Positions 22,645 through 46,199 of a DNA stretch of 64,000 nt are shown piece after piece (the stretch's first letter is position 1; each line of letters starts with the position of its first letter). This DNA comes from Amphiscolops sp. MND2022 (lineage: Eukaryota): assembly GCA_964187785.1 (NCBI GenBank), contig OZ076409.1, positions 50,594,001 through 50,658,000 on the forward strand. The letters are read 5' to 3'. Under the pieces are notes generated by a model. It saw only the letters and a program-made list of their open reading frames with translations. It did no database searches and was not told the DNA's origin. The position numbers were made by a program, and so were the translations under genes.

Positions 22645-23057
22645 TCCCGGATAAAAAACTATGATTCAAATGAGCTAATTTTATAAATTTCATTGGCATC
22701 TGATTCACATCCTTGTCGAGAAAAAAACGCGATTCTTGGAAGGAACTTGCAAGAATACTACAAGGAAATGCAATTTTCAGTAATGCATTAGTAATATATT
22801 AATTAGCCTTGGAACGTTTGTAAAAATCTGGCAAAATCTTTGGTTTTAATGAACTTTTTTTCAATATCCTTGCAAAATCTAAAAAGGAAAGAGTTTATTG
22901 GGAAGATTTTGCAAGGATATTGAAAAAGTTCATTAAAACCAAAATTTTGCCAGATTTTTTCAAAAGCTCCAAGGCTAATTAATGCATTACTAATGCTAAT
23001 TAATGAATAAAGATCTTGAAAGATTCTTCCTACCTTTAAAAAACGTTTTTACCCAGG
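22645..23057. mobile_element. Foldback/MITE-like element with a long internal palindrome
   Basis: Arms 22785-22880 and 22904-22996 are near-perfect reverse complements with a 23-nt spacer. Outer short inverted ends CCCGGATAAAAA / TTTTTACCCAGG. Confidence 0.7.
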
Positions 23058-23920: not shown

Positions 23921-24495
23921 AACAAGCCGGGGAACGGCATAAGTAGGCGCCATATCTAAGGCTCAAACATAGCAAAAGTACTGGGAAATTTTTTAGAGTA
24001 CCCAAAAACCCAAAAATTGGACCGAATTGGCGCGCTAAAAGACAGACCCTTTGGGATTTTTCAACATTTCTGTCGCAAAACATCAAAAAAATGAAGGGAA
24101 CCCTTTGGAGTCATTAAAAATTTTTCGCCAAAAAGTCTCACAATGCCGAAAAAACTGAAAGGGGGGACCATTTGGGATTTTTCAACATCCATTCTGTCAC
24201 AAAACATCAACAAAAGTGAAGGGGGACCCTTTGGGGACGTTTTTGTTTCGAAAAAAAAGTCTCATAATGCCGAAAATAACTGAAAGGGTCCCTTTGGTCT
24301 CGCCCCGTATTGTATGATACACGGAAAAAAGAAACAACTTCTATATTTCAGTTCCTTGTGCCAAAGTTCTGACTAATTTGGCAATTTGTAAAATTGCCAT
24401 AATTTTGGCATTCGACATGAAATGGCCAGTTCGTGTGGATTGAAAAAAAGTCACTATAATAGTCGCGTTTCACTTCATGAAGCGCCGACTAAAAA
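23921..24495 (-). mobile_element. DINE-1/Helentron-like non-autonomous element
   Basis: AACAAGCCGGGGAAC...AGTAGGCGCCATATCTAAGG at the left; AGTCGCG...GAAGCGCCGACTAAAAA at the right; internal GGGGGACCCTTTGG repeats. Confidence 0.75.
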
Positions 24496-26167
24496 TGTAA
24501 ATGGTGGAAAAGAGCTTTTAGAGTATTGACCAACTGACACCTCACACTGCTTCACGAGGATGGGGCAACATGCGCTTTTATAATAGTTAAAACATACAAA
24601 TGAAGAAAATAAACACATTCTCTCGAACAGAAAAGGATTTGAACTTGTTTTCAAAACTGCTGTCTGTTGATACAAATATTTTTCGCCAGAACTGAATAGC
24701 TTTCAAGAAGAAAACTAATGAAACAATTTTCTAGCCGTTGCAAAAAGGCTTTCATTTTCGACCAGTGAAGTTCTCTCGGCAACAAGAAAATGAAATATGA
24801 GTTGTAAAAAAAGTACTTTCGGTCGAAATTCAAGGGAGAATTTCGCCCTCCAATCAATCGTAGTCTAAGTTATAACCCGTCTCAAATCACCCTAACAATG
24901 ACAGTATATTTATTAGTTATAACTAGTAAATATTCTGTCATTTTCAAGGCGATGTCGGACGACATTTGTATTGAAATTATTATGTGGAAAAAATCTTCAG
25001 AATGCTTGAAAGAAAACAGGTGGCAATTCTGTTCCACTAATGATCAAAATTGTCCGAGGAAAAGATTTATGGCTGAAATGATTCCTCGTTGGCGGTTCTC
25101 ATTGCTAGGTATATTGCAAAAAACACAAAACAGTCCATAAACCCGCCAAATGTCTATAAAGAACATAGCGACAACTGAAATTTATGATAAACAGAAGTGA
25201 GAGAAAAAATCAAAGTTACATAACTGCTCAAAATTAAAAATTGATAACGAATATCGTTGGTACTGAATAACCGTCAGCGAAAGCAATTAGTCGTGCAGCT
25301 GGGTAAAGACTCTTTTTCTGGTGTCAGAAATTGAATGCAGTGTTAGTTTCTAGATAGCATTAATCAATTATGACATAATTCAGTTCAAAAAAGTTCTGGT
25401 TCCTTCATAACGGAGCAAAACACCGTAGATAAACGCCTAACTGAAAAAAATAGGTGATACTCCTTGCAATCCATGCATACCACAATTAAGTTTGTTCGCA
25501 TGCAGTATATGATACGGTATGAGATTGGATTCGACCAACTGCTTTCAACATGGAAAAGCGTGGCAACGCATGCGAACAAATGCATGAAAAGAAATAAAAT
25601 ATCAGTCGAATTGACTATGATGATGCAGAGAGCAAAACAGCCCTTTTCTTAAGAGAGTTACAAACTTTGTACCCGAGGGTTCTTTGTTGCCTGATACTAC
25701 TGAATTTCTGACAATATTAATCATTGTCGGATTGTGGGTTAGAATACCGCTCAAAATTAACTTTTTTAGTGAACAAATGTCATCCCAGCATGATGGAAAT
25801 ATAATCTACTAAATACCTGTAATGTAAATATTATGTCTTATGTACTTAGATATGGGCAATATGGAGTCATATAATAAGAGCCATGGTTGTGAGCAACCCT
25901 ACGTTACTTGTACCTTAATCCCTTCCCCCCTTGAGTGTGAGTTATATATATTTACTTAATACTGAGCGCTCTAGTTCCGGTGTCCGCATAACTGATCTTG
26001 CCTTAAATGGCCTTAAATGTGCTATATTTCATGAATATTGGTTAGTCACGACAAGGGAGAGAAGTGTTCCGGTCAAGCTGGACCGAGAGATGTAGAAACG
26101 ATGAAAGCTGTAACTTCTACTAGCTCCCCGCCTCAGAGTTTGTAGTTGTGACAAATTCCACTAAATT

Positions 26168-27052
26168 CATCACAAATTCATCGTCGAATTTGGTGACGAT
26201 GCTGACCTGATTTGAAATTTCAGTTGGATCCATCGGCGGATTTAACGGTGCTTTTAACCAAAGTTCATCGCAATCCCATCCTCAAAAATTGCGAGTGAAC
26301 AAAGCATGTGACTGTATACTCAGATTTCATCATAAATCCATCAGCGGATTTAATGGGATTTATTTTAGTAAAACTCATCTTTAATTCATCGCGATATCTC
26401 ATTTAGAAACTCCTGAATGTGCTTCTCATTTCTAAAGAACAGTAACTCATCCTTTATTCATCGTATTCACTAGTATAGAAGGGAAATGAGAAAGTACATC
26501 CTTAATCCATCCTAAAAAAGAGTGAAAGTGCTGGTTATCTGATTTGCTTAGTAAACCCATCCTTAATTCATCTTGATTTCGTTCGTGCTGAAAATTAACC
26601 ATTTTAGTGGATGAGTTCATCCTAAACTCATCGCTAAATTGAATTGCCTTAGTATTTGGTGTTTTAACTGGTGAGTTCATCCTAAACTCATCGCCAATTT
26701 GTATTGCTTTGGTATTTGCTGTTTTAACTGACAAGTTCATCTTAAACCCATCGCCAAAAATTCACTTGTGCTAGAATTAGCGTTTATCGACTGAATTCAT
26801 CCCGAATTCATCGTCATTTTAATCTGTGCTGGAAATTGGCAAATTATACGTGGAGTTCATCCTTTTATCATCGTCAGTTTAATTTGTGTTGATTTTCGAG
26901 CGAGAAAGACCACCATTCATCGCATTTTCATCCAGAGCTAAACTAGACTTGAAAATCAGCAAATATTCTTACGAGTTCATCGCATTTCCATCTTCAATTT
27001 TTAAATCATTGGTTTTGGCGCTAGAATCAGCGGAAAACATCGTTTTCCCATC
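26168..27052 (+). repeat. Array of 15 CATC-N7-CATC dyads in the 5' LTR (mirrored at ~43244-44130 in the 3' LTR)
   Basis: Dyads start at 26168, 26266, 26328, 26376, 26448, 26497, 26558, 26618, 26678, 26738, 26798, 26858, 26918, 26978, 27038. Confidence 0.9.
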
Positions 27053-27119
27053 CCGAATTGTGCTTTACCTTAAAATGACTTGAAATTAGTGCGTTATTGA
27101 ATGATTTGAGCTCATTTTA

Positions 27120-27362
27120 GTTGCTATAGAAACCATGATGCTACGTGCAGGCAATTGCGACATTGTAAATTGATGACTAAACACCATTAACATTAGTAGA
27201 TGTACCATGATGCGTGGCCACTTTGCGGCAGTTCACAACACCGGTCACGTGACTTACCATTTTAACACCAGCTGGTAACAGCCAATGAGAGAAGGTTGGT
27301 AAGAGATTTAGCGTTTCACCAACCGAAAAGACACGTGAACTGCTGTAATTTGGACCGCCATT
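27120..27362 (+). promoter_or_regulatory. Putative LTR promoter motif cluster
   Basis: GTTGCTATAGAAAC (RFX X-box-like, 27120-27133), palindromic GTCACGTGAC E-box (~27244), CCAAT (~27282), CACGTG (~27332), CCGCCAT (~27355). All retained in the 3' LTR. Confidence 0.45.
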
Positions 27363-27711
27363 AGCGATTACTGAGACCGAATTGCGACAAGCTACCATCC
27401 AGTTGGATAGTTCACGCCGAAAATCTACTTGAAAACATATCTCTATTTCATCTTCAGAAACTATAGAACTGAAACTGAGTAATTTCCTTGGTGCATCTAC
27501 GACTGCGATGAAAATTGGATGAACTTTCCTAACTACCTTGCTAATTTCCTTCTTCTCACCTAACGACTTACTTACTTGTACGACTTCATCTCAAACATCT
27601 CAGTTCAGATCAGTGAATTTGAGATCGAATAGCCATTTAAATAAAAAAAATACATCGAAACAGCATCTCAGATAATCCAGTCTTCACTCATAATTCTTTT
27701 CTCTCGGCTAC

Positions 27712-29217
27712 ATGAACCCAGATCAAGGTACCGAACTTAGAAGCGGTAGAGTCATAAATTCTTCGTCAGAAACATCTTCTCCAACAGATCCAGACATGGC
27801 TCCGGCGTCCGCCAATGACTCTGACAGCAACGAAACTTCAGATATCTCGTCCCAGTTGTCTGAAAGAAGAGAGAACTATGAAAGGAAGATAAATGAGTTA
27901 CAAAGCAAGTTTAGCCAACTGAAGAACTTATTAATGGCAGTTATTAGTAAAACCAATGAAAAAAACCGGCCATCGACATCGCAAAGTTCTTCAAAGCCGG
28001 TCCACACAGTGGGGCTCGACATGGTGACAGGAGCTATAGAAACCCGCTCCACCCGCCCGCCACCCAGCTTCACAAACTTCAGGAGATACCAAGAAGACGA
28101 CCCGGACGAAGAAGGCGAATCAACTCCTAGAAGCAATGAGGAACGACTACTCAATGCAATCGAGACGATCCCCCAACGGATCAAAAGCACCACCACCAAC
28201 ACGAAACTACTACAGACACACGTCCCAAATTTCAGAGGCCAAAAAGACAAATTCGTGGAATTTGAGCACCTTCTCCTCAACCACCTTAGCCCGCTCGCCA
28301 ACAAAATCACTGAGGAGAACAAACTCCACTTCTTTCAAAGCCTTTTGAGAGATGATGCAATAGAGTACTGGCAATCCATCCAGATAACGCCACTAACAAC
28401 GCTGAAAGATGTGCTCGACCTCTTCAGGAAAGAATTCGCGAAAGAGGATCTTAAAGAAGTGGCTCGCTACAAGTGGGATCAAGCCCGTTACGATCCCACA
28501 ACAGAGACATTCAGCGACTTCCTCAAAAACTTGAAAAAGACTGCGAAACAAGCCTTTGGGGATGAAGCGGATAAAATCATCAAAATGTTCTTGTTCGGCA
28601 AACTCCCAGTCGAAATACAACAAGAACTTACGATGGCCAATAAGGAGGAGAGCTCACCGGAAGAAATCAAGACATACTTGATGAGAAAGTACCAATACCA
28701 ACAGTATGCAGCGCCGCCCACGACAATTCAACCATTCAACGCAGTCACCTCCTCGGCCCCAACGACCAACACAACTACTAAACCAGCAACAACGACGACA
28801 ACGCAACCGACAGAACGAAAACAATTTGAGGGGCAATGTTTCTACTGCGGAAAGACAGGACACCGCAAAACGGATTGTCGCGCCCGACAACGAGACGAAG
28901 CAAACGGCATAAAGAAAGAGGACGCAATCCCAATGAAGAAAGTAGCTGACCCCGACAAACCAAAATACAATCCAAAGTTGGTCTGTCAGATTTGCGGTTA
29001 CACAGGCCACTCCGCAACGGATTGCAGACGACGCGTCCCCAAGGAAAGCAGCTCTGCATATGGAAAGATTCCATACACAACAAATTCACAGGACGACAAC
29101 AAGGCTAGACGACAAGATTTAAAACGACAGCAACAGCCGATGAATCCAATGCAAGCAATTACTGAAGACGACGAACAAATAAGCTACTCTGATGAAGACA
29201 TAAATCAGGGTTTTTGA
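27712..29217 (+). CDS. gag: Gag of element C (501 aa), starting inside the LTR
   Basis: Intact ORF with capsid-like VPNFRGQKDKFVEFEHL...KLHFFQSLLRDDAIEYW and two knuckles, CFYCGKTGHRKTDC and CQICGYTGHSATDC. Confidence 0.93.
   Translation: MNPDQGTELRSGRVINSSSETSSPTDPDMAPASANDSDSNETSDISSQLSERRENYERKINELQSKFSQLKNLLMAVISKTNEKNRPSTSQSSSKPVHTVGLDMVTGAIETRSTRPPPSFTNFRRYQEDDPDEEGESTPRSNEERLLNAIETIPQRIKSTTTNTKLLQTHVPNFRGQKDKFVEFEHLLLNHLSPLANKITEENKLHFFQSLLRDDAIEYWQSIQITPLTTLKDVLDLFRKEFAKEDLKEVARYKWDQARYDPTTETFSDFLKNLKKTAKQAFGDEADKIIKMFLFGKLPVEIQQELTMANKEESSPEEIKTYLMRKYQYQQYAAPPTTIQPFNAVTSSAPTTNTTTKPATTTTTQPTERKQFEGQCFYCGKTGHRKTDCRARQRDEANGIKKEDAIPMKKVADPDKPKYNPKLVCQICGYTGHSATDCRRRVPKESSSAYGKIPYTTNSQDDNKARRQDLKRQQQPMNPMQAITEDDEQISYSDEDINQGF
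28022..28033 (+). promoter_or_regulatory. Primer-binding site of element C (tRNA-Leu-like), inside the gag ORF
   Basis: TGGTGACAGGAG directly after the LTR-terminal CA; one mismatch from the tRNA-Leu PBS TGGTGTCAGGAG. LTR-LTR identity stops exactly here. Confidence 0.7.
29208..29214 (+). promoter_or_regulatory. Putative -1 ribosomal frameshift heptamer G_GGT_TTT
   Basis: XXXYYYZ heptamer immediately before the gag TGA; the pol ORF at 29214 is in the -1 frame. Confidence 0.7.
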
Positions 29218-32200
29218 TTCAGCCACGCTTTCTGCCCGCTACGAATGACACGCGCGACAAACGACTTAAGACTCAACAAACAACTCACAACCGTCCAATG
29301 AAGAAATGGCAGCCTTCAGCGTACAAACGACCAAAAGCTGATGACGTCTATCAGCGAAGACTTTCCAACGATGAAAAAGCGATGGGAAATGCACGTCAAC
29401 GCAACGGCAGCCGCTTTTCTCCACTCGCTGAAATCAACGATGAACAAACGATGAACTGGCAACAAAACACCATGAGGCAGGTGGACGATGCCAAAGAGAT
29501 GGACACCAACCATCTAGACGACGACTCGACTTCACACACAACAATCGACAAACGGCTTAGTATTAAAAAACATGCAAAACAAAGTAGTATTAACATTTCA
29601 AAAGCTAACAAACATGCAACTAAAACAGAAATTCACGTTCTTAGTCCCACTTTACATTTAAACAAGAAAGATAAAATGCTGTACGTTCCTCTTCAGTTTG
29701 ATAAATACGAAATCAACGCACTGTTAGACACAGGCGCAATTCAAAGCGCAATGTCTGAAGCAGAATTGCGAAAAAAAACAACGGCTCATCCAGAAGCCAT
29801 CCTTGAAGAACTCCCCCTTCCGAATTTCAAAATTCAAATAGCAAACGGGAACTTAGTCCCAGTGCGTAAGCAAGTCTTACTTAGATTTTACGTTGCTGGA
29901 AAAGTCTTTGAAGAAAAGTTCCTAATCCTTCCAACAAGGGGCACAATTTTAATTGGAATGTCATTCTTTGAAAAGTACTCAGTCAACTTGGACATAAAAA
30001 ATCACCTTGTCCACTTCCCCAATCACTTGATGTCCATGCAAGTTAGACAACAAAAGAACAACAGATTCAAAACTGGTTTAATTGATTTGTGTTCCAGTAC
30101 TAGAACAGTGATCCCTCCTCTCCATCAAGTGATGATACAGGTCCACAGTGACGCGGACATCTCACTTACAACTGGTAGAGTTGAGGGCTCACCTTGGATT
30201 CATGCGAAAGACGTCTGCTTGTTTCCCCAGCTTTGGTTGACCTAGATGAGGGCAAGACGACAATCCAGGTCACCAACCCGAACAACCACACGTTCACACT
30301 TGATGCCAACACCACTCTGGCACACTTTCGCATACCGACACCACATCAGGCGGCAAACATCACACCCATGCCAGTCGAACACTTGAACTTGATCACCAAG
30401 TACCCAGATGAGGCGGAAGCGGTGATCAACCAACTGTTCGTGAACCCTGACATGAAGTCAACTAAGTGGTACCCAACTCCCGAGACGTGCAGTGAGCCAG
30501 ACAAACTCACTGCAATTGAGCGACGAATCTATGATGAGATTCTGGCACTGCGAGAGCTCGAGAAGCTTGACCCGTCCCAATCCGATGAACAACGGATGAA
30601 CTTCCTGAAGAACTTCAACTGGGACGACTCGCTTCTTACTCCGTCTCAACGGTTACAGGTAGAGGAGTTGCTGGTAAAGTACAACTCCATTTTTGCTAGA
30701 CATCGTTTTGATATTGGCATGAACACTGATTTTAAAGTTAAGTTAACACCCCAACATGAAGAACCTGTTTATTCACAAAGTCTCCCTGCTCCGACAAATT
30801 TGAAGGACGATTTGCTCGTGGAGTTAGCCTTAATGCAAGAGTACGGGATTATAACTACCTTGCCTCATAGCAAATACTCATCTCCGATATTTGCTCAACG
30901 TAAACCTAATGGTAAATTGAGGATTTTAGTTGACTTGAGAAGAATAAACCACTTGATCAAAAACGATTACGGTGAACACAACCATCCCGTAACCACAATT
31001 GCTGACGCTGCCCAACACATGGCCGGGAAAAAGTACTTCTGTAAACTTGATTGTTCCCAGGCCTACCATTGCATTCCAATGGCCGATGAGCAGTCTGTCC
31101 AACTGTTATCGTTTAATTTTGGTTCTAGAACGTTTGCCTTTTTACGTCTAGCACAGGGTCTCGTAATCGTTCTTTGTCAGCATTTACAAGTGTAGTCCGT
31201 GAGAATTTGGACCCCTTGGTCAAAGCAGACCGGTGTGCTCAATATGTTGATGACATTGGAATTGCAGCACACACCCCTGACGAACTGATTCATATCCTTG
31301 AACTTGTTTTTCAGCAATTGAACAAAGCAGGTCTTAAACTTAGCATGAGTGAATGTGAATTCGGACAAAAGCAAATTGAGTACTTGGGCAAAACCATTTC
31401 TAGCACCGGTATTGCTCCCATTGAAAAACGAATAACTGATTTTCTGACCAAGTTGAAACCCCCCAATTCAGTGAAAGCGTTGCAACGTTATCTTGGTTTT
31501 GTAAACTTTTACAGGTCTTATATTCCCCGCCTAGCTGATAAAACTTGTTGTGTACAGTAATTGATCAAGAAGGACGTCCCTTTCAAGCTGAGCCAACAAC
31601 ATAAAGATGCCATTTTTGAAATCAATGAAAGTTTGTTAAAAGCAACAAAAGTGTCTCTGAAATTACCATTACTTGATAAACAATTGGTAATCATGTGTGA
31701 CGCCAGCGAACACGCTGCTGGCTATGTTTTGTTAATTGAGGATTATGCTGACCCGTCAGTCAAACAAACATACGCCCCCGTTGCATTTGGCTCTAAGAAA
31801 TTTCAGGGCGGCCAGATGTCTCTAACAATGTATGCCAAAGAGTTTTTAGCTATGCACTTTGCCTTCGATGAATTTGGCCACATTTTGTGGGGTGCGAAAA
31901 AACCCATCATTGTTATGACTGACAATAAGGCCTTGACTAGATTTTTTTCAGGCGAAGCATATCCCGCCTTCACTTTGGAATTTTTGCGATCAAACCCTTC
32001 AGTTCAATTTTTTATTAGCACATGTACCAGGAGTTGAAAATCCCGCAGCGGATTACTTATCTCGTCTTGAGATTAGACCTGAAGACCGTGTACACTTAAA
32101 ATTGACTGATACTATTCCAATTCACAGAATCGAGATCGACATCGCCTCCCGAACACCAAAACAGGAGGAAGACGAGCCTGATTACTTTCCCAAGAGCGAA

Positions 32201-34307
32201 CCACTCAAATGCAAGCGGCAGAAGGTTGTCAAAGAGATGAACTGGCACCTGGCACTGACGTGGCTCATGACGATGGGAAAGGGATGAAGTTCACCAACTG
32301 TGAGAGAACAGCGGCCTCAGATGACTTCGCGACTGACAACCAACTGACGTACCGCCTCACAGACGTGGACAAGCCGATTCAACTCTCGCAATTAATCCGT
32401 AAAGTATCATTATCACACCCGGTAATGAGTTAGGTTAGCCCCGCTGAGGGGATCGATCTAATTCAGGTCCAGAAAACTAACTGGGTTAATCAAAAAATGA
32501 TTAGATTTTTAGAAGGTACTGAAATTTTGCAACACCCAGTTAGTATGCAAGATCAGTTTTTTCAAAAGTTGCACAAAAATCGAAAACGCCTACAAGTTGT
32601 AAACGGTGTCTTGTACAGACAGTTTTTTGATCACACGGGATTGGAGTCTCACAAGCAGTTAGTTGTTCCTGAAGACTGTATTTTGAAAATAATTAGGACT
32701 CTACATAACAGCCCGGTACAAGGCCACCCTGGTTTAAAAAAATGTTGTACGAACTTCGTAAAAGATATTACTCTCCTAACTTAGCCTGTAAAGTTCAAAA
32801 AGTCCTTGACGGATGTGAAAACTGCATGAAATCTAAAAGTGTAAAAGAAACGCAACTACGTCCACCGTTACAAAAAATCTACGACCCGTGCGACGGACCA
32901 GAAAAACTGTTGGAAATAGACATCGTTGGTCCACTCCCGGCGTCGAACGGTTTTACACACATTCTGACGGCTGTTGACGTTTTTTCACGCTACCTGTTCG
33001 CCGTTCCGCTGAAGAGACCTGAAACACATTCCGTAGTCAGAAGATTACTGTCGATCTTCACGAAACACGCGTATGTGCCCAAGCACATTCTGACGGACAA
33101 GGGCACGGCGTTTACGGCTGAACTTCTGTCTGAAATCGCGAAAGCGGCTGATATTCACATCTCCCATGCCACGGTAAAGCACGCACAGACAATAGGCATG
33201 GTGGAGAGAACGCACGCGAAACTGAAAAAGATCCTTAAAATTAGTGTAAACGCAGACAGACCACAATGGGACCGCTATGTCGACATAGCAATCATGGCCC
33301 ATAACACAACGTATCATGATTCACTGAAATGTTCACCAACTGAAATTTTCCACGGCAGAACACCATACAACCCACTAGATCTGCAATTCCGAAACGCAAA
33401 CAAGCCGGCTGAAACAAAGTGCAAGGACGTGAACGAAATTCTAGACAAAATGAACTTAATCTTCAGAGACAATCTAGATAACATCATTTCCGCCTATCAC
33501 AAGTACAAAATGTACTATGATAGAAAATCACGAGCACAACCACTGAAGGTGAATGAATTTGTGTACCTACTAGATCCTAAGTACGACTCTCAGAGAAGCA
33601 AAGAAGAGTTTAAAACTTTCCATTGGAAAGGACCGTACAAGGTGATAAAAGTGCTATCCGATAGCAACTACATCATCCGCAAAGTAGGCACACACCAAAC
33701 TCAGTGCGTACATCGCATGCGACTGAGATTGTTTAAACCGGAGTTTCCGATTGATGACATCAACGTGTCTAAGCATCTTTACCCAGACACTGAAAGGGTT
33801 GAAGACACGGACATATTCGATTCGAATATTCCAACAACCGACGACGCTGATCAGAATGAGAACGAACACCTAGATCAAGACTTAGTCGAAGATGAGCCTT
33901 CAGACGAAATAGTTCCACCAGGACAAGAGCGAAACCATCCACCAGAAATTTCACCAGAAATAACCACTAGAATCGACAATCAGCAAGTAGAAACTGACCA
34001 CAATGACTTTAGACCACCTACAGTTAGATTTGGAACAGAAGACGAAATTATTCTACCGCCCCCCCGCGATGAAAGTAGAATAAGATTACCTCTGAGAGAC
34101 GAACAACACGAAAATCAGCCTCAACAGACAAACACACAAACTGAGGATGAGGAAAGGATGAGTTCTAGACCTTCTAGAAACAATCAAAGTAGGTACAGGT
34201 TACGCGAAAACCCTACACCGAAAACATACCCTGACTTCCTTATTCATGAGATTACATCAGCCAGAAACTCTCTGAGAAAGACCAACAAAGTAGACGTAAC
34301 GATTTAG
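29214..34307 (+). pseudogene. pol: Pol of element C (protease, RT, RNase H, integrase), broken by several frameshifts and stops
   Basis: ALLDTGA protease; KLDCSQAYH and YVDD (31243-31254) RT; MCDASEHAAG RNase H; HHCC-type zinc-binding region, EIDIVGP, TDKGTAF, GMVERTH, WKGPY integrase. Breaks near 30195, 31165, 31558, 31945, 32210, 32431, 32740. Confidence 0.93.
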
Positions 34308-34335
34308 CCACGAAAAACCACATTTCTAAACACAC

Positions 34336-34870
34336 GATGTGTTACGGATGAAAATTCACAAAAACGAGTCAATTACATGCAATTTCAACTTAAAACGAAC
34401 ATGAAGATGTAAAATAGATGAACAATCACTTAAAATTACATGAAATACGCAAAAAAACGAAACACGATGTAAAACGGATGAAAAACGACCAAAAAACCAG
34501 AAAAAACAACACATAAAAATTTTGAGATGAAAAAAGGATGAAATCACATGAAAATTTATCTCAGACACACGAGAGATGAAAAAGTGATAAACTTAGTCAA
34601 AAATTCGACCAATCAACATGCAATATTTACTAGCGATGCATTTGAGATGGAAAATGCCATCAGAATGCGAACGCACTCACGTTCATGCTATCATAATACT
34701 CTAGCTCGGCTAGAGGATGAAATAGCGATGAACTCGATTCAATTATTCAGAACTTACATGAAAACAATTAACGAGATGAATTTGTGATGGAAACTACCAT
34801 CAAATCGTGACCGAATTTATCGTTAGCCTGACACGATACTCTAGCTTCGCTGGAGGATGTCAAAACGACG
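34336..34870 (-). repeat. Internal cluster 1 of the dyad (GATG-N7-GATG on plus)
   Basis: Exact copies at 34336, 34406, 34466, 34526, 34635, 34716, 34775; one-mismatch copies at 34575 and 34856. Confidence 0.85.
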
Positions 34871-35145
34871 AATTTAGTCTAATTGGAAATTCGAAAATAT
34901 TAAATGACTTACGAAAACCTCCTTGTGATGGGAAACACCATCCACATAACATCACAATAAATCAGCTAATTCTCAAACAACATGTAACTCCACGAAACGA
35001 TAAAAAACCGCCGACTTTATTTCGAATCACGCAAAAATGAAATGATCAATACATGTAAGGTTCAAAGACCTGCCAAATCAATGACGTCACGAAAGAAATT
35101 GACAACTCCAAACTACATGCAATACAAATGAGCAATACACGGAAA

Positions 35146-35414
35146 TATACATGTACCGTTTAAAAAATGAACGAGATAATAGATGCAATTCACACCAAAA
35201 CAATACAAACCTAGACGAATAAAAATGAAACAAACAATCGAAAATACATGAAGCCTACTAATTTAGTTGCACGGTTTAAAAAATATAATAGTACATATAC
35301 ATGTATTGTTTAAAAAATGAACGAGATAATAGATGCAATTCACACCAAAACAATACAAACCTAGACGAATAAAAATGAAACAAACAATCGAAAATACATG
35401 AAGCCTACTAATTT
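35146..35414 (+). repeat. Tandem duplication, ~120 bp with ~150-bp period
   Basis: TATACATGTA...TTTAAAAAATGAACGAGATAATAGATGC...GAAGCCTACTAATTTA occurs twice. Confidence 0.9.
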
Positions 35415-36244
35415 ACATGCAAAATATAAGAATTGACGAAACAACCACAAAACGAATAAAGGAGTGAGCCCCCCCGGTAAACATCAGTTCATAACAAGTA
35501 AAATACCCCTATCGAAAAGCCAAAAACATTCCTTCGTGCTGGCTGGCATTTCTCTGAAAAGAGTGCTTGTTAGTTGAGGCGGGGAGCTCACAACCATATT
35601 CGGATGAAGCTTGCTGCGTTGGTTATCCAGCGGCTAGTGGATTCTCAGTTAGTTTTGTAGGGGGCTTTGTGACGACAAAGCCCTGTCCAAGTCAAGGAAC
35701 AAAAAATTTTAATAGAACATGTCAATAATGGGGCAACCCATTCAAAGGAAAACATTAAGAAAACACGCGCACATGAAACCACACGATATCACAAAACTTA
35801 ATAATTCGAAACATGCAAAGCCGTAGATGTCAATCACCCTGATTGATCAGATTAAACGTCAAATGGACAAACCCATCTCGACGTTTGATGACAAACAACC
35901 AAGCGTAAAAAATAACATGAAGACTATATATAGCTCAAAACTGAGAGATTTCATTCATCTGATAGGAGCGGAGCAGCTCCACTCACCCAGCTCTGAATTG
36001 GTACCCCATGTACCTTGCACAACGCAACGAAAATGATTAAGACACATGTACACTAAAATTCATGCAATCTCGACAACCCGACAAACGATCAACACCATAT
36101 AACACTAAAATACATGAAGAAAACACTCCGAAAACACCGCAAAATTGATAAAATACCCTCATCCACCATGAAAAACGCAATTCCCGATTAAGTTATAGCA
36201 AAATAAACACAAAAACACGCAAAATAAATATTTTCCAAAATTAC

Positions 36245-36628
36245 GATGAAAAAAAGATGAACTATGCAGCAAAATGAGCAAAAATTCGACAAGTCAAAAC
36301 TTTGAACTACAGCAAAAACAATGAACTACAGCAAATAACTCGCCAAAATGATAAAATGAAAACGCAAGATGAAAAAACGATGATCTATGTAGAAAAACCA
36401 CATAACAACACGCACTGATTCACATATAACGAACGATGTAAAAAAGATGAGAAAACAGTTTTCGCGACGTCGCTCGGCCGACTGAGGAAAACGTGATGAA
36501 AATGAGATGAAAAATCAAAACGAAGCACTGATTATCTAACTACACTTACACGAGATGTAATAACGATGAACAACATGACAAAAGTCTCCTACAAATTCTA
36601 TCAACTGAAAAGTGATGTGAAAGCGATG
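36245..36628 (-). repeat. Internal cluster 2 of the dyad
   Basis: GATG-N7-GATG at 36245, 36368, 36435, 36495, 36554, 36614. Confidence 0.85.
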
Positions 36629-39600
36629 ACCAATGAAAAACAGAGCCGCCGATTGACGCAACCTACCAAATGAACTTAACCAGTGTGAACCTAACTGAAC
36701 TCTACCTGCATTCCCACTCACTATTAACTCAAGAGAAAAACAATTTCGGGTGCCAAATGTTTAACTTGTACATAGTACACTGCCGATTTTTCCGACGCAG
36801 CGCATTTCTTCTTCTCCTCTCATGTCACTTAATGCGACATATAAAATTGGTCACCCATTTGCTAGATACAATACTATAACATACAGTAAAATAAAATAAC
36901 ATGAAAAATACAACAGTTTCAAATGAATGTGGACAAAGTACAGGCGTTAAACACCACTTTCTGGACTAGCAGCCCGCTCCCCGTTTATGCTGTACCCCAA
37001 GTTTGAATATAAGCGCAGTCTATAATCTTCGCCAGCCACAATCCCAATGTCGTCCCACAACATACTTTCGGTCAACTCGTTGAGATCGACTAAGCGCCGG
37101 TGTGACTCTGCAACTTCGTCTAGAAGAGGACCACTCACATTTTCATAGCTCCGAATACTGCTGGCAGAAAGATAGCTCACGATAATGGCACATACACCAC
37201 TCGTTACGTCGCTGCTTAAATGGCCGACTCCGTCACACAACAAAGTATTGTTACTCTGAATGCCTCCGTCCAAGCAAAATATACTTCGCAATAAATTCTG
37301 GGCACCTCGATTAGTACAATAGCACAGGGGGTCCAACACCGACAGATTCATCGCACTTCCGGTCGCCCCAGACCCACGTCGATAGCTACTGATGAATTCC
37401 AGGAAGCCACGTTCCATGTGTCCTTGCTCTGCATACGAGATTCGGCCTAACTCAACGAGAAGATCCGTAAATACCCGGATTTCGGCCAACAGAACATCTT
37501 CAGGAACAATATTGAGACTTGGCAGACTGAACACACTCCGAACAAAGGACAGATCATCCCGGACTCCTGGCAATGCGCTGACATTTTTCACTACAGTCAA
37601 AATGAAGACTGGCACTCGAGACATATCTTCATCATAAAGACATCCGCCCGCATCCACTTCGTTATTGGCACGAAAACTGTCAATCAGGACTTGCTGTTTA
37701 ACCTCGGAGATGGCATAACTCTCCACGTCCACGAACAACCAGGAACGCGTATCCTAGGCTGCTGGCAATCGGTCATCATCAACCAGAGTCGAAATCAGTT
37801 CTCTTATGAAACTGGCACTTTCCACCGCCCAGTAACAACTGCGTACTGAAGAAGCACCAAAACTCTTCTCGTAGGAATTCACCACTGAAACATTAAGGTA
37901 CAATAAATTCCACATGAAACTTGACTTGTATGACCACCCCCCCCTCACGCAAACGAAAATACCAACCTCACTAGAGCCCATCTAGAAGTGACCCGACAAG
38001 ACTTCACCAGGAATATAACAATTACTAACGAGCACGGTAAACTAGACTGAGCGCCTGAAGCCTGATTGGAATCCCAATCTCTGCACGCAAGGTCAGGTCA
38101 AGTGTGTCCAATGGTCCATCTCCACTGGCAAATCGCAACAGACACACAATGTCAGCCCAGTTACTCCTCAATTCCTCGCACACATCAGCGAGCGTCCACA
38201 CAAATACCTCACCAGTAAGAATCGCCTAAATTGTAAATAACATCATATTAATTAACTGCAACCACTGTGAAGTTCACTACAAATCGCCCCCTCAACACTC
38301 CGTTCACACATTTCTACACATAGATACCATCACATCATGAAATCATACGTACTTGCAGCAAATGCGGACACGCCAACAGCAAAGGATCCTTCACGAATCC
38401 TTTCAAGCGCTTCTGAAGATGGTTAAGAACCACATGGATATCAGTCCCACCAAGCACTTGACCAGCCACATCCACGATCGTCCGACTGACATCCGATAAC
38501 GTGAAGGATTTCACGTCCACGAGGCCAAGCCCAGCGGTGCTTCGGAACAGTCCACCCAGCTGTGGCAACGCATCACAGCACAGTCCAAGTGGAACAGGCT
38601 CTCCGAGCATGCAACACCACATGTTAACCAGCCAAGTGATCACTCGACCCTCCCAGTCACGAGCCAGATTGAAACAGAAGACAGTGTAGTGACTGACTCC
38701 GTCCATGCCACACACTGCGACCGTACCAGTCACTAGCCCTCCAGTCACTGTCAGATGGAAACTGCTGTACTCACTATTGCTCCAGATGGTAATCAGTCTC
38801 CGCATTACGTACGGCCACAAGCCAAGCAGAACAACGCTCTAAAATCAACATAAGGTCTTTCGAAACCATACATCATAATATTATACCGCCCCCCAACCCT
38901 CCGTTTCAATAGTAAACAATAGAAAATCCATACTCAGTCGAACGTAACAGAAAACGCAAAAATCAAATTTCCCACCATCACGTCGGACAACGCGCAAGTT
39001 GCCCCAAACAAGACCGCATGTTGGGGATCCGACGACACCAGCACTTCCCACAAATTAGCAACTCCACTAAAGTGACAATCGCGGTACAGAGCGTCGACCA
39101 CGAAGCACACAAATAAGCGCACAGTCTTTTCTGGCCAGTCTTCCCCCTCTTCGTCTTCCCCCCACACAGGCTGCCCAGCCCCCTCCAGTTCAAATACTTC
39201 CAAAACACTGAGTGACGGACAGGTCTCAATGAAGGGCACAGTCACCCCACCTAAGATTGCACGACACTCGGCGCTCTCTTCATTCGTCATGAGCGTTCCA
39301 TCGCGTCGCCGCAACGAAGCCCACGGTGTAAACGGATCACACAATCCTGACGGTGATGACGCAGTCCTCGGCAATGTTCCATAAAGGTGGTAATGCCTCG
39401 GCTGCCCACCTTAACGTCTCTCTTGCACATTAGGCATCGCACATACGACATGCGCGACTCGTGATTGCGTGCATATCCTAGCGCCAGCCCGCAGTATGGA
39501 TGATCAAACCATCCGGATTTGATCACCTTCTTTCCTGATAATCACAAAAAAAACAAAATGACATCATTACAAATCATCATACACAACGACTAAAATCATC

Positions 39601-39668
39601 TGTTACACATCCGCAAAATCGAAAAATGCAAAAGTAAAACGTAAACATCAAAAACGTTCACCCGGAGT

Positions 39669-40096
39669 GATGAAAACATGATGTAAAATAATATTTTCAT
39701 TGGAAATATAAGCGAAAACGAAGAAAAAACGAAAAGATGAAAAAGAGATGTGTTTGCAAGCCACCAGAACAGGAAATTGAAACTTTAAAAGACGAAAGCC
39801 TCGAAGGATGAAAAAGAGATGTATAGAACGACTTTGAACCAAAATTGAGATATTTTAGAGCGAAAATAACTTAACGATGAAAAAGAGATGTAAACCGAGT
39901 AAAACGACGATAATAGCTGAAAACGAACGAGAAAAATTCAAGGATGTAAAAGAGATGGAAAGTTCTAGAAAATGACCAGAAAAGTGAAAAGGAAGAAAAA
40001 CGCCATATTTAATACTTTTAACGATGAGAAAGTGATGGAAAATGAAAACTGCAGAAAACCATATAGTGAAAACAGAAAAACGATGGAAAATAGATG
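39669..40096 (-). repeat. Internal cluster 3 of the dyad, inside intron 4 of the cargo gene
   Basis: GATG-N7-GATG at 39669, 39736, 39807, 39876, 39943, 40023, 40082. Confidence 0.85.
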
Positions 40097-40612
40097 GACA
40101 AGAAGAAAAACGTTAAACCACGCTAGTGAAAGTGAAAACGAAAAGAGAAATGAACAAAAGTTACCGATCAGATACTTCACAGGGTTAAAGCTGTTTAGGT
40201 AACCTGGTAAACGAGACGCAATGGGCTCGTCGTCGGAGTCCACCAGACTGGGTCCCATTGGAGACGTCTCAGCAGTCGCAGGAACCAGACCGGGAACAGC
40301 ACCCTCCAGAGCAGGCTCAACGGACAGAGAATCACCAGCAGGGACATCCTCGACTGCCTCAAGAAGGGTCTCAGCGCTGTCAGTTGATGGCACGTCAGAC
40401 TGCTCAACGTCAGCCTCCACAACTTCAGGGACGCTAGCAGCTGGCGAAGAGGGAGCAGCCGAAAGAGTTTCCACAGGAGGATCGTAATCTGTGGAAGTCT
40501 CGCCAGTTTCCACAACGGCCTGAATGGACTGGTCAACAACAGCCACGCAGGCATCGACTGCCACATCCACAGGAGTGACGACGGCACTGACTCCTGCGTC
40601 TACAGTGACACG

Positions 40613-40652
40613 AGGAGGAGGAGGAGGAGGAGGAGGAGGAGGAGGAGGAGGA
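40613..40652. repeat. (GGA)n microsatellite encoding poly-Pro in cargo exon 4
   Basis: Direct GGA run; PPPPPPPPPPPPP in ORF 39965-40774. Confidence 0.9.
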
Positions 40653-42185
40653 CTTCGAATTGCTGACTCGTGGTCCAGGAATCGCTGGAAGTTCGGCGAA
40701 AGCACCGACACTGGGGCACGTGCCACTGGGGAGCTAACCGCGCCCAGGGACAAGTCCTGGAGGAACGAGGACATCTCTAGTGGGGGAGGCCCTCCTTGAG
40801 TGACAGAGTCAGCCTGCGGCGCACCAAAGTCACTCGTTTTATACCCACAGAGTAAGTGATAGGGAGAGGCCTTGGGGCGTGGATGGGAGTCCGGCCTGAA
40901 AGAAGAAAACAGAAATCAGACGACGACGAATGATGAAGAAAGTGCGCGTACACCGCGCGAAGAAAGAAAACAGGAAAAAAAGTCATCAAAAATTCATCCT
41001 CAAAAATGGAATTCGCAGCGGATCAGCCACGAAGGACTGTGAATGTCCATGACACATCCCAAATTCATCTTAAAAAATGAATTTTATAGGTAATCGACCG
41101 CGAAGGGCACTACATGCAGATGAGATGTTTATATCGGAATTACATCGGAGTGTCCGGACGATGCCTTAGTACAGACGGAAAGTGAAAAGGAGTCAACTCA
41201 CTATACTGCTGGATGCTATCTCGTAGCATGTCCCGCATGTGGCGATCATACCACCCGAAGGTGATGCTACCGAGGGAAGCATACCAAGGATAGTGATCTA
41301 AACATCAAACGGAAAGAGTCAACATCTGAAGGGACCGGAGATGAGAAATGAAGAGATTGTAGACTGAATTGAAGATCTGGAAGGACAGAACTTACACTGC
41401 GAAAGGTACGGGACGTTAGGAGACTGACCAAGCGGTTGATCAGGTTGAAACTGGGGTACGGGAGCTGCTGCTTGAACTTCAGGAGTCTCTTGAGGCGGCA
41501 CGGTCTGCAAGGTAGTCAGCTCAGAAATGACGCCGACAGAGTGAACTGAGTCCGCTAAAACCAAGACGCGTCTTCAGTACCTAATTGTTTCCTGACCCGT
41601 TTGTGAAAAAAAAGAAAAATAGTGCACTTACTTTCTGTAGCTTCAGTCTCTGGAAGAGAATAAACAGAGTGGATGTCGGACATCGCTGTAGGTTTGCAAA
41701 ACAATCTGAAAAGGAACGGAAGAGAGTGAAGAAAGGAACGAAATCGAAGAATCTGAGGACAAGAATTTGATCAGTAATTAAATGGCCTGATCAACCACGA
41801 TTGCGAGATACAAATTCACGGAAAATTTCAAAGAGCGCGAATGCGGTTTGAGTGCCAGGACAAACCAAGTACTTGAAATTCAGAAGATGAAAAATCGATG
41901 AAAACTCTCCGATTTCAATGACTGCCTACACTTTTCTTCACAGTTCAACCAACTTGACAATTTTCTCTGAAAATGAATCGCCCCCCAGAATTTGACTACA
42001 AAAGCTTCAAGTATTTGGTTTTGATGACAGCTGCCAGTCTCAGATCAATACCGACGAAGTTGAGCGGAAACGCGCAAAGGAAATCGTGGCGATTTTCAAA
42101 CCGACTTGACGGAAGATGATTCAAGGATGAGAATGTTTGTTGACAACCAGTTGGATTTCCTTCAGTTCAGAAAATTCAGTTTCAC

Positions 42186-42430
42186 CCAATCAGAATAAAG
42201 CAAGTGGTTGCTATGGCGACGATTTCATCTCTTTCTCATCGCCGAGAAATTCAGACAGCGGAAGCGACAGCTACGGTTGCTATGACAACAATTCATCTCT
42301 TTCCTATCGCGGAAATTGACAGAGCGGCGGCGCCAGCAGTCTGTTAATTCAACATCGATGTCTCGCTGAGTAAACAATTCATCGTTCATTCATCTCAAGA
42401 AAACTTCGGCAGACAAGAAATGGCGCCGAT
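42186..42430 (-). promoter_or_regulatory. Putative promoter region of the antisense cargo gene
   Basis: Two X-box-like palindromes, GTTGCTATGGCGAC (42207-42220) and GTTGCTATGACAAC (42276-42289); CCAAT at 42186; AAATGGCG near 42418. Lies 0.5-0.7 kb upstream of the predicted ATG. Confidence 0.4.
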
Positions 42431-42857
42431 TCATCGCCAAATTGTCAATGAAGCTACCAGAATGTTTACTTAGCCTAGGCGGCCTGGGGAAATCTTTTCA
42501 CCAGGAAATCGAGATTTTCACCGAAAACAATCGACAGACCGAGCTCCCATCAAAAGCATGACAACCAATAAAATGCAGATCTGCGGACATTCGATGGGCC
42601 AAGAATTAGAGTTGCCGCGTCGAAATTCTTTAACCGAAATCACCCAGGATGAAGCCAGACATGACGAGTGCCGAAAGTCCTCTTCTCAGAGAAGGTTTAC
42701 ACAGGGCAGAACAAACGAAGGAAATGCCAATTCAGAACAAACGAAGAATCAATTTTCTCCCTAACCAAACGAAGGAAACAGTCGAAGCCAACGCCGAGAC
42801 AACCATCATCTGCACATTTGGCCCCTGCACTCTCAGTCCAAATCCCGCCTCGGGGAG

Positions 42858-45088
42858 TGTCATGCCAGCATGATGGAAATATAATCTACTAAATACCTGT
42901 AATGTAAATATTATGTCTTATGTACTTAGATATGGGCAATATGGAGTCATATAATAAGAGCCATGGTTGTGAGCAACCCTACGTTACTTGTACCTTAATC
43001 CCTTCCCCCCTTGAGTGTGAGTTATATATATTTACTTAATTTTGAGCGCTCTAGTTCCGGTGTTCGTATAACTGATCTTGCCAATGGCCTTAAATGTGCT
43101 ATATTTCATGAATATTGGTTAGTCACGACAAGGGAGAGAAGTGTTCCGGTCAAGCTGGACCGAGAGATGTAGAAACGATGAAAGCTGTAACTTCTACTAG
43201 CTCCCCGCCTCAGAGTTTATAGTTGTGACAAATTCCACTAAATTCATCACAAATTCATTGTCGAATTTGGTGACGATGCTGACCTGATTTGAAATTTCAC
43301 TTGGATCCATCGGCGGATTTAACGGTGCTTTTAACCAAAGTTCATCGCAATCCCATCCTCAAAAATTGCGAGTGAACAAAGCATGTGACTGTATACTCAG
43401 ATTTCATCATAAATCCATCAGCGGATGTTATGGGATTTATTTTAGTAAAACTCATCTTTAATTCATCGCGATATCTCATTTAGAAACTCCTGAATGTGCT
43501 TCTCATTTCTAAAGAACAGTAACTCATCCTTAATTCATCGTATTCACTAGCATAGAAGGGATATGAGAAAGTACATCCTTAATCCATCCTAAAAAAGAGT
43601 GAAAGTGCTCGTTATCTGATTTGCTTAGTAAACCCATCCTTAATTCATCTTGATTTCGTTCGTGCTGAAAATTAACCATTTTAGTGGATGAGTTCATCCT
43701 AAACTCATCGCTAAATTGAATTGCCTTAGTATTTGGTCTTTTGACTGGTGAGTTCATCCTAAACTCATCGCCAATTTGTATTGCTTTGGTATTTGCTGTT
43801 TTAACTGACAAGTTCATCTTAAACCCATCGCCAAAAATTCACTTGTGCTAGAATTAGCGTTTATCGACTGAATTCATCCCGAATTCATCGTCATTTTAAT
43901 CTGTGCTGGAAATTGGCAAATTATACGTGGAGTTCATCCTTTTATCATCGTCAATTTAATTTGTGTTGATTTTCGAGCGAGAAAGACCACCATTCATCGC
44001 ATTTTCATCCAGAGCTAAACTAGAGTTGAAAATCAGCAAATATTCTTACAAGTTCAACGCATTTCCATCTTCAATTTTTAAATCATTGGTTTTGGCGCTA
44101 GAATCAGCGGAAAACATCGTTTTCCCATCCCGAATTGTGCTTTACCTTAAATTGACTTGAAATTAGTGCGTTATTGAACGATTTGAGCTCATTTTTTAGT
44201 TGCTATAGAAACCATGATGCTACGTGCAGGCAATTGCGACATTGTAAATTGATGACTAAACACCATTTACATATGTAGATGTACCATGATACGTGGCCAC
44301 TTTGCGGCAGTTCACAACACCGGTCACGTGACTTACCATTTTAACACCAGCTGGTAACAGCCAATGAGAGAAGGTTGGTAAGAGATTTAGCGTCTCACCA
44401 ACCGGAAAGACACGTGAACTGCTGTAATTCGGACCGCCATTAGCGATTACTGAGACCGAATTGCGACAAGCTACCATCCAGCTGAAAATCTACTTGAAAA
44501 CATATCTCTATTTCATCTTCAGAAACTATAGATCTGAAACTGAGTAATTTCCTTGATGCATCTACGACCGCGATGAAAAATGGAGGAACTTTCCTAACTA
44601 CCTTGCTAATTTCCTTCTTCTCACCTAACGACTTACTTACTTGTACGACTTCATCTCTAAAACATCTCAGTTCAGATCAGTGAATTTGAGATCGAATAGC
44701 CATTTAAATCAGTAAAATACATCGAAACAGCATCTCAGATAATCCAGTCTTCACTCATAATTCTTTTCTCTCGGCTACATGAACCCAGATCAAGGTACCG
44801 AACTTAGAAGCGGTAGAGTCATAAATTCTTCGTCAGAAACATCTTCTCCAACAGATCCAGACATGGCTCAGGCGTCCGCCAATGACTCTGACAGCAACGA
44901 AACTTCAGATATCTCGTCCCAGTTGTCTGAAATAAGAGAGAACTATGAAAGGAAGATAAATGAGTTACAAAGCGAGTTTAGCCAACTGAAGAACTTATTA
45001 ATGGCAGTTATTAGTAAAACCGATGAAAATAACCGGCCATCGACATCGCAAAGTTCTCCAAAGCCGGCCCACACAGTGGGGCTCGACA
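42858..45088 (+). repeat. 3' LTR of element C (2231 bp)
   Basis: Near-identical to 25778-28021; preceded by a short purine run GGGGAG (candidate PPT). Confidence 0.95.
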
Positions 45089-45120
45089 ACAATACTACAA
45101 ATTTAACGTATTTTACATAA
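44779..45120 (+). CDS. LTR-encoded copy of the Gag N-terminus (103 aa) plus 10 flank-derived codons
   Basis: Almost identical to the start of ORF 27712-29217 up to HTVGLD; diverges at the LTR end. Confidence 0.6.
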   Translation: MNPDQGTELRSGRVINSSSETSSPTDPDMAQASANDSDSNETSDISSQLSEIRENYERKINELQSEFSQLKNLLMAVISKTDENNRPSTSQSSPKPAHTVGLDNNTTNLTYFT

Positions 45121-45429
45121 AAATGCACTTTTTGATTTTTCGGTATCCGAAGCATTTGAGATTTTGTCAGGAAGGAGGGATCGAATCTAATTGATTTTTA
45201 GATTTTATATCTTTTGAAATTGAATGGAAATAGAAACTTTTTCTGATTGAAGTATAGCTAGAGGAAAAACTCCAGACCTTATTATATTTTTGTTAATAAA
45301 GAGTCTGAAGTACCTGCTACTATATTATTATGTTCATATTGTACACACTACTCAGTAGAGAAAGGTAGATTGTGAAAAGTTTTGTACAACAATTCCTTTT
45401 GGCATCAAGAGAATATAACATGGCGCACT

Positions 45430-46072
45430 CAGGCTAACTTCCAGCCTTGAAAAATACGACAGCTCCAGTGCAAACCTGTCGTGGCGGAAATTTATCCAAT
45501 ATATAAAAATACAAATGCGAGCACTTGTTTTCGAACCTCCGCCGCCTCCTCCTTAGTGAAACGGAATATACTTCGGAAATAACGTCAAAAATTCGGATAT
45601 AGCGCTTTACTCCGGATATTACGTTCAATTTTCGGATGGTATTGAAAAAAAATTGGTGGATATGTATTGAAAAAACCTGATGTCAGATGAAACATGACAA
45701 TTTTGAACAGTCTCATAGTGCCAAAAAATCTGAAAGGGGGACCATTTGGGATTTTCAAACATCTATTATGTTCCAAAAAATCAAAAAAATGAAGGGGAAC
45801 CCTTTGGTACAAGCGAAAAATTTTCGAAAAAAAGTCTCATATTGCCGAAAAAAACTCCAAGTTAAAAACACGCAGATAGCCAACGTGGGAATCCTTAGTT
45901 GTTTTCAAATTTTTGGACGTCGGTTTCATAATTTTGGAAGAGGTTCTAAGGTTTGCAGTATGTTTTGGTCAAACTGAACAAATGAACAAAAAAGTGGACC
46001 TTACGCTAGTAAAAAAACTACCCACTGTAAGAGTCGGGCACTTTTTCTACTAAAATGCGCCGACTAAAAAAA
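45430..46072 (-). mobile_element. DINE-1/Helentron-like non-autonomous element
   Basis: Right end AGTCGGGC-ACTTTTTCTACTAAAAT-GCGCCGACT-AAAAAA; internal GGGGGACCATTTGGG / AAAAGTCTCAT units. Left boundary approximate. Confidence 0.65.
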
Positions 46073-46199
46073 ACATTCCTCTGTGCAGTTGGGCAAAGTG
46101 CACTCACAGAAATGACCAAATCGGTAAAGGAACGAGAACCAAGCGCGCTACCGTTAAACAAACTGTGCACCTTGTTACGACTACACTACACTTTTCCGA

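Follow-up and report, generated by a model that had tools for sequence, protein, structure and literature searches.

We analysed a window of 64,000 nucleotides from Amphiscolops sp. MND2022 (G000:C1:50594001-50658000, in which C1 is contig OZ076409.1 of an assembly of 1.07 Gb in 1,929 contigs) and found that a 19.3-kb Ty3/Gypsy-type long terminal repeat (LTR) retrotransposon spans its positions 25778-45088. Besides gag and pol, this element holds an antisense spliced gene, here called the cargo gene, which is predicted to encode a protein with a BED-like zinc finger, and 70 exact copies of the dyad CATC-N7-CATC, compared to 1 in the other 44.7 kb of the window. The 5' LTR (2,244 nt, 25778-28021, + strand) has TG...CA ends, and the 3' LTR (2,231 nt, 42858-45088, + strand) is 97% identical to it by blastn, with 45 substitutions in 2,227 aligned bases. 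The flanking target-site copies are ACAAA on the left (25773-25777, + strand) and ACAAT on the right (45089-45093, + strand), with one mismatch and 4/5 bases equal. A TGG... sequence resembling a primer-binding site was read directly 3' of the 5' LTR (28022-28030, + strand). The gag frame (27694-29217, + strand) has two CCHC knuckles and its first ATG at 27712, inside the LTR, and overlaps the start of pol (29196-34307, + strand), which contains protease, reverse transcriptase (RT), one RNase H and integrase in several frames. In total, gag-pol of the window copy is split over 7 frames, which marks it as a broken copy. According to Pfam, the order of zinc knuckles, protease, RT, RNase H and integrase is the Gypsy order, and the direct TG...CA LTRs, a duplication within 4-6 bp, the pol order and the single RNase H agree with Ty3/Gypsy, a label that comes from structure and Pfam. 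No env-like frame was found 3' of the integrase in the window element by inspection of open frames and Pfam matches, and no second RNase H of the Odin type was among the Pfam matches of pol. Troyka identity was ruled out by the TG...CA ends and 5-bp flanks, as Troyka elements have CG ends and a 3-bp duplication (PMC12440569).

The cargo gene is located on the minus strand from 41683 to 36947 and comprises eight coding exons, about 1,060 codons and seven introns. Exon 1 (coding part from the ATG, 41632-41683), exon 2 (41396-41554), exon 3 (41202-41297), exon 6 (38353-38838) and exon 7 (38030-38225) make up five of these. Exons 1-4 are acidic and proline-rich, with low complexity in exon 4 (40204-40895), while exon 5 (38976-39534) contains the BED-like finger at about 39356-39511 followed by a helical region, and exon 8 (36947-37884) is helical. 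In the window copy the gene is broken by frame breaks in exon 4 and, after the finger, in exon 5, and by an in-frame stop in exon 8. All 14 splice sites were kept in 14-16 of 16 related copies, compared to a mean of 0.43 for 123 intronic GT/AG that served as a control; the degraded or rearranged copies L021, L022 and L024 were left out of the splice, core and array counts. Because the splice sites are conserved in comparison to the intronic GT/AG, we regard the predicted antisense spliced gene as real, and with the LTRs and the Gypsy order this confirmed the initial annotation, which had described an LTR-bounded element with gag-pol and an antisense spliced finger gene. All eight exons were open and in phase in 5 of the 16 copies. 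In L024 (27-1694 and 2501-5094), exons 5-8 are partly duplicated in tandem, as two different alleles.

The cargo gene was also present in other copies, as expected from the initial annotation: 143 matches of 868 candidates were scored for its last exon genome-wide, most of them stop-free, and they fall in groups with about 95, 76, 71, 67, 60 and 42% identity. As judged from codon comparisons, the predicted gene is under purifying selection. In the stop-free copies, which alone made up the sets for exons 5, 6 and 8, the median ratio of nonsynonymous to synonymous divergence (dN/dS) was 0.08 for exon 5 (19/45 pairs unsaturated), 0.21 for exon 6 (16/21 pairs) and 0.16 for exon 8 (23/45 pairs), with a maximum of 0.33 over the three exons, the other pairs being saturated. 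Within exon 5 the nonsynonymous differences (pN) amounted to 0.16 in the finger part compared to 0.28 in the rest. A protein search with exon 5 among longer proteins gave no match, and a profile search yielded 88 relatives, nearly all of them unnamed short gene pieces. The clusters P0051, P0052 and P0063 consist of distant finger-exon relatives on short ENA, JGI and Logan contigs. The match of P0051 to the Amphiscolops assembly is only about 45%, and other species therefore probably have this gene family as well; metagenome scans gave zero loci.

The number of dyads expected in the element is 0.34 at the CATC density outside it and 2.2 at its own density, and CATC pairs at any other spacing from 0 to 20 occur at most twice per strand. 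Of the dyads, 34 are located in the LTRs, 28 in internal non-coding parts (3' of the integrase, behind the cargo gene, in introns 3 and 4 and 5' of the gene), and the other 8 fall within coding sequence. The 5' LTR, which also holds the start of the gag frame, has 18 dyads, 16 of them in an array at 26089-27052 (+ strand) with mostly 60-nt steps, and the 3' LTR has 16, of which 14 form an array at 43166-44129. Arrays on the minus strand were found 3' of the integrase (34336-34789, 7 dyads), downstream of the cargo gene (36245-36628, 6 dyads) and in cargo intron 4 (39669-40096, 7 dyads, with one further dyad on the + strand at 39597), and four scattered dyads lie between the cargo start and the 3' LTR (41886-42394), presumably in the antisense promoter region. 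The commonest step from dyad to dyad was 60 nt (18 of the gaps below 200 nt), and the N7 spacers are AT-rich. The initial annotation had counted about 50 dyads in the non-coding parts; the clustering that it described was found, whereas the number was too low. The 8 coding dyads, 7 of them in pol, are positioned at 29370-29501 (three, clustered at the gag-pol junction), 29787, 30584, 32272, 34146 and 37630, and L034 has dyads at matching places. L034 (G000:C1:7629600-7638600) has lost the part from RNase H to cargo exon 6 in one deletion, with both LTR arrays kept, and it was ruled out as a cargo-less derivative because of this one deletion and the retained exons 4-6.

Over the whole assembly we counted 100,399 dyads compared to 26,360 for the reversed word, and the density of 3.6 per kb in the window element compares to 0.094 per kb genome-wide. 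Triple dyads at steps of about 60 nt occurred 8,745 times, compared to 0 for the reversed control, and the dyad is thus no genome background, in agreement with the initial annotation. A control pattern with N8 spacing was left unused, as it was swamped by (CAT)n microsatellites. The first 100 triple-dyad matches form 12 clusters on C1, and 8/12 are within 7 kb of a cargo match; the remaining four, which are single, may be solo LTRs. A 14.5-kb LTR pair at G000:C1:933442-948510, with dyads at irregular spacing and a finger match at 944631, is probably a more distant lineage of the same group as the window element (group I).

The dyad cores are under selection of their own, because they are five to seven times more conserved than their neighbours. 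Across 15 related copies (L025 was also left out of the core-conservation and step counts), 124 of 3,851 core bases (3.2%) differed from the window copy, compared to 532/3,380 (15.7%) in the spacers and 3,922/18,345 (21.4%) in the flanks. In ten copies with LTRs 68-72% identical outside the cores, 118/139 LTR dyads were intact, whereas 7.9 were expected. Neither the definition of the dyads from the window copy nor a possible preference of the aligner for them can produce such a gap. Flank identity between different arrays was 0.29-0.34, which is the level of shuffled sequence, and the four arrays have only the CATC word in common. Within the LTR array the flank identity was 0.38 compared to 0.29 after shuffling, and TRF reported a 60-nt unit with 2.5 copies; this array therefore grew by duplication, which is old.

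BED fingers are defined by C-x2-C ... H-x3-5-H/C ligands and an upstream aromatic residue. The finger in exon 5, C-x2-C-x16-H-x5-H, fits this ligand pattern with an upstream aromatic, and C33, C36, H59 and W8 were invariant in 10/10 group I exons, with H53 in 8/10. The family zf-BED was the top Pfam family for 7/10 and 8/28 members (best E 0.0017, and 0.0018 among the 28), and the best solved-structure match for the finger alignment was the BED domain of ZBED2 (E 0.083). The assignment of the finger as BED-like is consistent but weak. According to the available text of PMC10368747, the word read by a BED domain is 4 bp long and adjoins an AT-rich run, and paired words are bound cooperatively.

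For the protein body (exons 6 and 8), hidden Markov model (HMM) searches against solved structures were significant for nothing, and Pfam gave no family, including no PF05699 hAT dimerisation domain. Exon 8 of groups I and II (the latter described below) had generic helical matches only in Atlas, and its low-confidence AlphaFold models (mean pLDDT 55 and 54) had no Foldseek match at E 0.001; their best VIA Z values of 5.6 and 5.7 correspond to common helical arrangements. Against one host hAT transposase (P0135, which has no relatives for a profile) the cargo scored E 0.21-0.45, and the best local alignment falls in the PF05699 region (E 0.36). Sequence and HMM searches gave no match to an RNase H-like DDE core in exon 6, and no invariant acidic residue was found at the expected catalytic places of this exon. 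By eye, we take the strand-helix pattern of exon 6 to resemble an RNase H-like core, and exons 5-8 are presumably ordered like a hAT transposase whose catalytic residues have decayed, which serves as a lead only. Of the captured transposase suggested in the initial annotation, the weakly BED-like finger thus stood, whereas the body was matched to hAT by no tool. A search for long repeats (at least 40 nt) around the cargo gene showed none in the element.

One of the profile relatives led to a further family in the assembly, group II, with 150 scored matches of 3,894 candidates. In its stretches L027-L029 the exons follow each other as in the window element, antisense and behind the integrase, and relative to that element the RT is 72%, the integrase 58% and the finger exon about 24% identical. 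Exon 8 of the two groups is homologous (hhalign probability 88%, E 3e-6). The group II RT (L033:2880-3500) matched best with Pol structure chains that we take to be those of foamy virus (E 3e-16), and then with Ty3 (E 6e-11). CATC dyads numbered 0, 1 and 0 in L027, L028 and L029. Instead, these stretches contain 8, 9 and 6 sites (at most 2 mismatches) of the inverted word AYGACTG-N7-CAGTCRT, positioned in the LTR and at the end of the integrase, with one extra internal site in two stretches; the window element, L011 and L018 have zero. The LTR counts were 5, 5 and 4 compared to shuffle means of at most 0.03, the exact word occurred 1,432 times genome-wide compared to 7 for the control, and one element has the same triplet in each of its two LTRs, at a distance of 14.1 kb. 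In L028 (8970-9810) an array of a 32-nt unit on the palindrome TTCCATGCATGGAA lies just outside the group II LTR, and a smaller TTGCGGAA cluster is present at L027:8620-8880. The CATGCATGGA array of L028 (8970-9810) was ruled out as the group II word, as it is outside the LTR, which ends at 8278.

The finger helix differs between the two groups, together with the word. In group I the helix residues T-T-F-x-E were constant in 9/9 fingers, down to 56% exon identity, and CATC-N7-CATC was the top gapped word in 19/19 stretches at 8-45 per 10 kb (these stretches were chosen by cargo match, and kin share group labels). In group II the helix is H-N-L-W-D in 3/3 stretches. Hermes contacts DNA bases through S66, N67 and R70 (PMC10368747, available text), and in an alignment by eye the variable helix positions appear to correspond to these residues. 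Group III, with 91 scored matches and one stretch (L035), has a finger close to that of group II with the helix S-S-L-W-D, so that the cargo gene is found in three deep lineages. In all three, the gag frame begins about 300 nt inside the LTR and runs through the primer-binding site (window 27712-28021; L028:7957-8278; L035:3756-4088).

The backbone of the family is far more uniform than its cargo. RT matches were 99% identical to the window RT in 149/150 scored cases, many with open frames of 1,703 codons, and these elements include ones in which the last cargo exon is only 42% or 60% identical (RT at C7:25665909 with cargo at C7:25672153; C2:95386100 with C2:95392343). L032 is 94-99% identical to the window in exons 1-4, most non-coding parts and the LTR, with 95-99% in the flanks and LTR, 90% in the two arrays that adjoin exons 5-8, and 50-60% in exons 5-8 themselves; L018 and L030 show a similar pattern. 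Because these three copies diverge in exons 5-8 on a near-identical backbone, we infer that exons 5-8 form a cassette that is exchanged as a whole, with the intron-4 array at one border and the array behind the gene at the other.

Based on these findings, we lean towards the reading that the element encodes a sequence-specific factor that binds the element's own words with a positive effect, as a transactivator or an anti-silencer. As the gene is antisense, its seven introns would stay unspliced in the genomic RNA and survive reverse transcription, and the protein would be made from an antisense transcript. It would consist of an acidic low-complexity N terminus, the BED-like finger and a large helical body. 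The CATC half-sites would be bound in pairs, 11 bp apart on one helix face; a spacing of one helical turn, as between the half-sites of group I, would fit cooperative BED binding, as would the inverted pair of group II. Loading would take place at five clusters along the element, most densely in the LTR promoter region, and the bound factor may sustain transcription of the element and, in trans, of relatives that have the same word. The likelier route would be transactivation or protection from histone-based silencing. We favour a positive effect because of the acidic N terminus and the recent success of the family. A more far-reaching version is possible, and we propose it only tentatively: a clade-wide self-recognition system derived from a disarmed hAT transposase, with one finger-word pair per lineage, in which an oligomer coat would shield the element from chromatin silencing without DNA demethylation, and ancient effector alleles, swapped as a cassette between the intron-4 and downstream arrays, would be kept by an arms race between host and element.

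Several observations weigh against an activating self-binding factor. The first zinc histidine is altered in 2/9 group I copies, and the zf-BED bit scores shown (12-14) are weak and below the cut-off of 20.6. The three loci that yielded the group II word are also those in which it was first counted, 2/7 group-II-type finger matches on C1 lie more than 56 kb from any exact group II site, and L035 contains zero group II sites and 7 loose AYG-N15-CRT matches compared to 0-5 at other spacings. Finger and word differ together between two lineages, which are too few for co-evolution; the co-variation predicted in the initial annotation thus holds for groups I and II, whereas group III is ambiguous. 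The sampled families all carry the cargo. The CpG observed/expected ratio (o/e) was 0.92-1.00 inside and outside the element, and transitions affected 317/2,635 CpG compared to 224/2,446 GpC (1.3 times). Because the CpG o/e is close to 1 and CpG decay is small, a removal of DNA methylation as by the plant VANC proteins is unlikely. The present data fit activation and repression alike.

The alternative that survives best, although we consider it rather unlikely, is that host transcription or chromatin factors bind the words and that the cargo does another job, such as blocking a small-RNA or restriction factor. Selection on the cores is silent on which protein binds them, the 3' cargo exons diverge far faster than the RT, like proteins in conflict with a host, and group III has a finger without a clear word. 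However, word and finger helix are both constant in group I and both changed in group II, an LTR enhancer would not be expected to form clusters within an intron and to either side of the cargo, and among the first 100 triple matches the excess dyads are mostly in the cargo family, as seen from the clusters near cargo matches. It is improbable that the protein binds the words as a brake, i.e. as an autorepressor, for control of copy number or superinfection, or as a tool in competition between subfamilies. The same anatomy and evidence of selection apply to it, and many old alleles on one backbone, as in L032, would fit discrimination between self and non-self. On the other hand, the family is strongly amplified and young, as the RT matches indicate, the one word common to all group I alleles would make subfamilies indistinguishable by their DNA, and the acidic N terminus resembles an activation region. 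We regard as quite improbable a hAT-like action on the cDNA, by end pairing, import of the pre-integration complex or target choice. The BED-like finger and the sites in both LTRs of both lineages would agree with it, as would the subterminal repeats of hAT elements, which are short words near the ends (PMC10368747, available text), but the arrays begin 300 nt inside the LTR end, 36/70 dyads are internal and a transposase body is without support from the tools. An origin of the arrays as neutral leftovers of tandem duplication, with the gene as a passenger nested transposon, is very improbable and largely refuted, as the slight likeness of LTR-array flanks and the TRF unit stand against conserved cores, flanks unrelated between arrays, dN/dS far below 1 with saturated dS, and a gene in three deep lineages.

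An activating factor of the kind preferred here can be compared with four known systems. VANC proteins are anti-silencing proteins of Arabidopsis VANDAL (MuDR) transposons, and related elements differ in the motifs that lie in their introns and non-coding parts (PMC5735166, available text); they have been traced to MAIN-like proteins (PMC13547354, available text). Our family is similar in its element-encoded accessory gene, in a short word amassed in introns and other non-coding DNA, in related elements with different proteins and words (here two lineages, the third being ambiguous), and in clusters in the LTR, after the integrase, in introns and behind the gene, which resemble the places of VANC binding described for VANDAL. 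In contrast, VANDAL is a plant DNA transposon of the MuDR type and ours is an LTR retrotransposon; VANC goes back to MAIN-like proteins and not to a BED finger; the words are spaced dyads with unrelated flanks; and VANC is described to remove DNA methylation, of which there is little trace in this region. The plant Gypsy elements Retand, Grande and RIRE2 share a long region from pol to the 3' LTR with a conserved antisense gene, for which DNA binding is predicted and a regulatory role proposed (PMC11963269 and PMC7264820, available text). For Retand, antisense open reading frames (ORFs) with a predicted DNA-binding domain are described, often with tandem arrays between pol and the 3' LTR (PMC11963269, available text), so that repeats often occur in the same region as here. 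However, TRP28 (PF04195) is absent from the Pfam matches of cargo exons 4, 5, 6 and 8, the word 'intron' is absent from the main texts of PMC11963269 and PMC7264820 whereas the cargo has seven, and the Retand arrays are described in the available text as family-specific tandem repeats, with no matched LTR word reported there.

Tas is likewise a retroelement-encoded DNA-binding protein with its gene adjoining the 3' LTR, and acts as a dimer on response elements in its own LTR and internal promoter (PMC6950176, available text). However, as described there, it belongs to a retrovirus with env and its gene is in sense orientation after env, whereas the cargo is antisense and there is no env; Tas is not a zinc finger of this kind, and has few response elements compared to tens of dyads. 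Hermes, a hAT element, shares the C-x2-C...H-x-H/C finger, 4-bp words by AT-rich DNA, cooperative binding to pairs and many copies of the word (PMC10368747, available text). In contrast, the cargo sits in an LTR retrotransposon with its own integrase, the words are not confined to the ends and the rest of the protein has no significant match to a hAT transposase. By analogy, the predicted system would work like VANC or Tas and is laid out like the Retand antisense ORFs, and it is a member of none of these. In the open-access literature as available to us, with Repbase and subscription papers outside its scope, we found no description of an LTR element that combines a spliced gene for a BED finger with words to match. 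The initial annotation, which knew of no such module in an LTR retrotransposon, needs a qualifier for the Retand antisense ORFs and arrays (PMC11963269, available text).

Next to the 3' LTR, a unit of about 2.36 kb is tandemly duplicated to three to four copies at 45019-53720, with no dyads and no tblastn match to the proteins of the element. Units of 54-124 nt (GGGGGACCCTTT...) occur on both strands at 15641-16427, 24034-24495, 45705-45861, 57056-57451 and 63094-63476, and also in L035. A 721-codon frame at 3249-5414 (minus strand) has no Pfam match and no dyads, and its C-terminal end is gag-like by eye. Short palindromic (MITE-like) inserts were seen at 22776-23007, 24878-24961 and 54444-54538.

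How retrotransposons escape from silencing is largely open, and VANC, the one well-tested sequence-specific system, is found in plant DNA transposons. The function of the Gypsy antisense ORFs is still described as unknown (PMC11963269 and PMC7264820, available text). In contrast to those cases, the family reported here offers a known type of DNA-binding finger, a selected and sharply delimited candidate site, and a swap control provided by nature. Because finger type, candidate site and a second finger-site lineage are all available, the self-recognition hypothesis can be tested directly. As the assembly has about 74,000 excess dyads, a genome-wide action of the protein is conceivable too. It is also surprising that an eight-exon gene persists in a retrotransposon at all, and that its old alleles are exchanged while the backbone is uniform.

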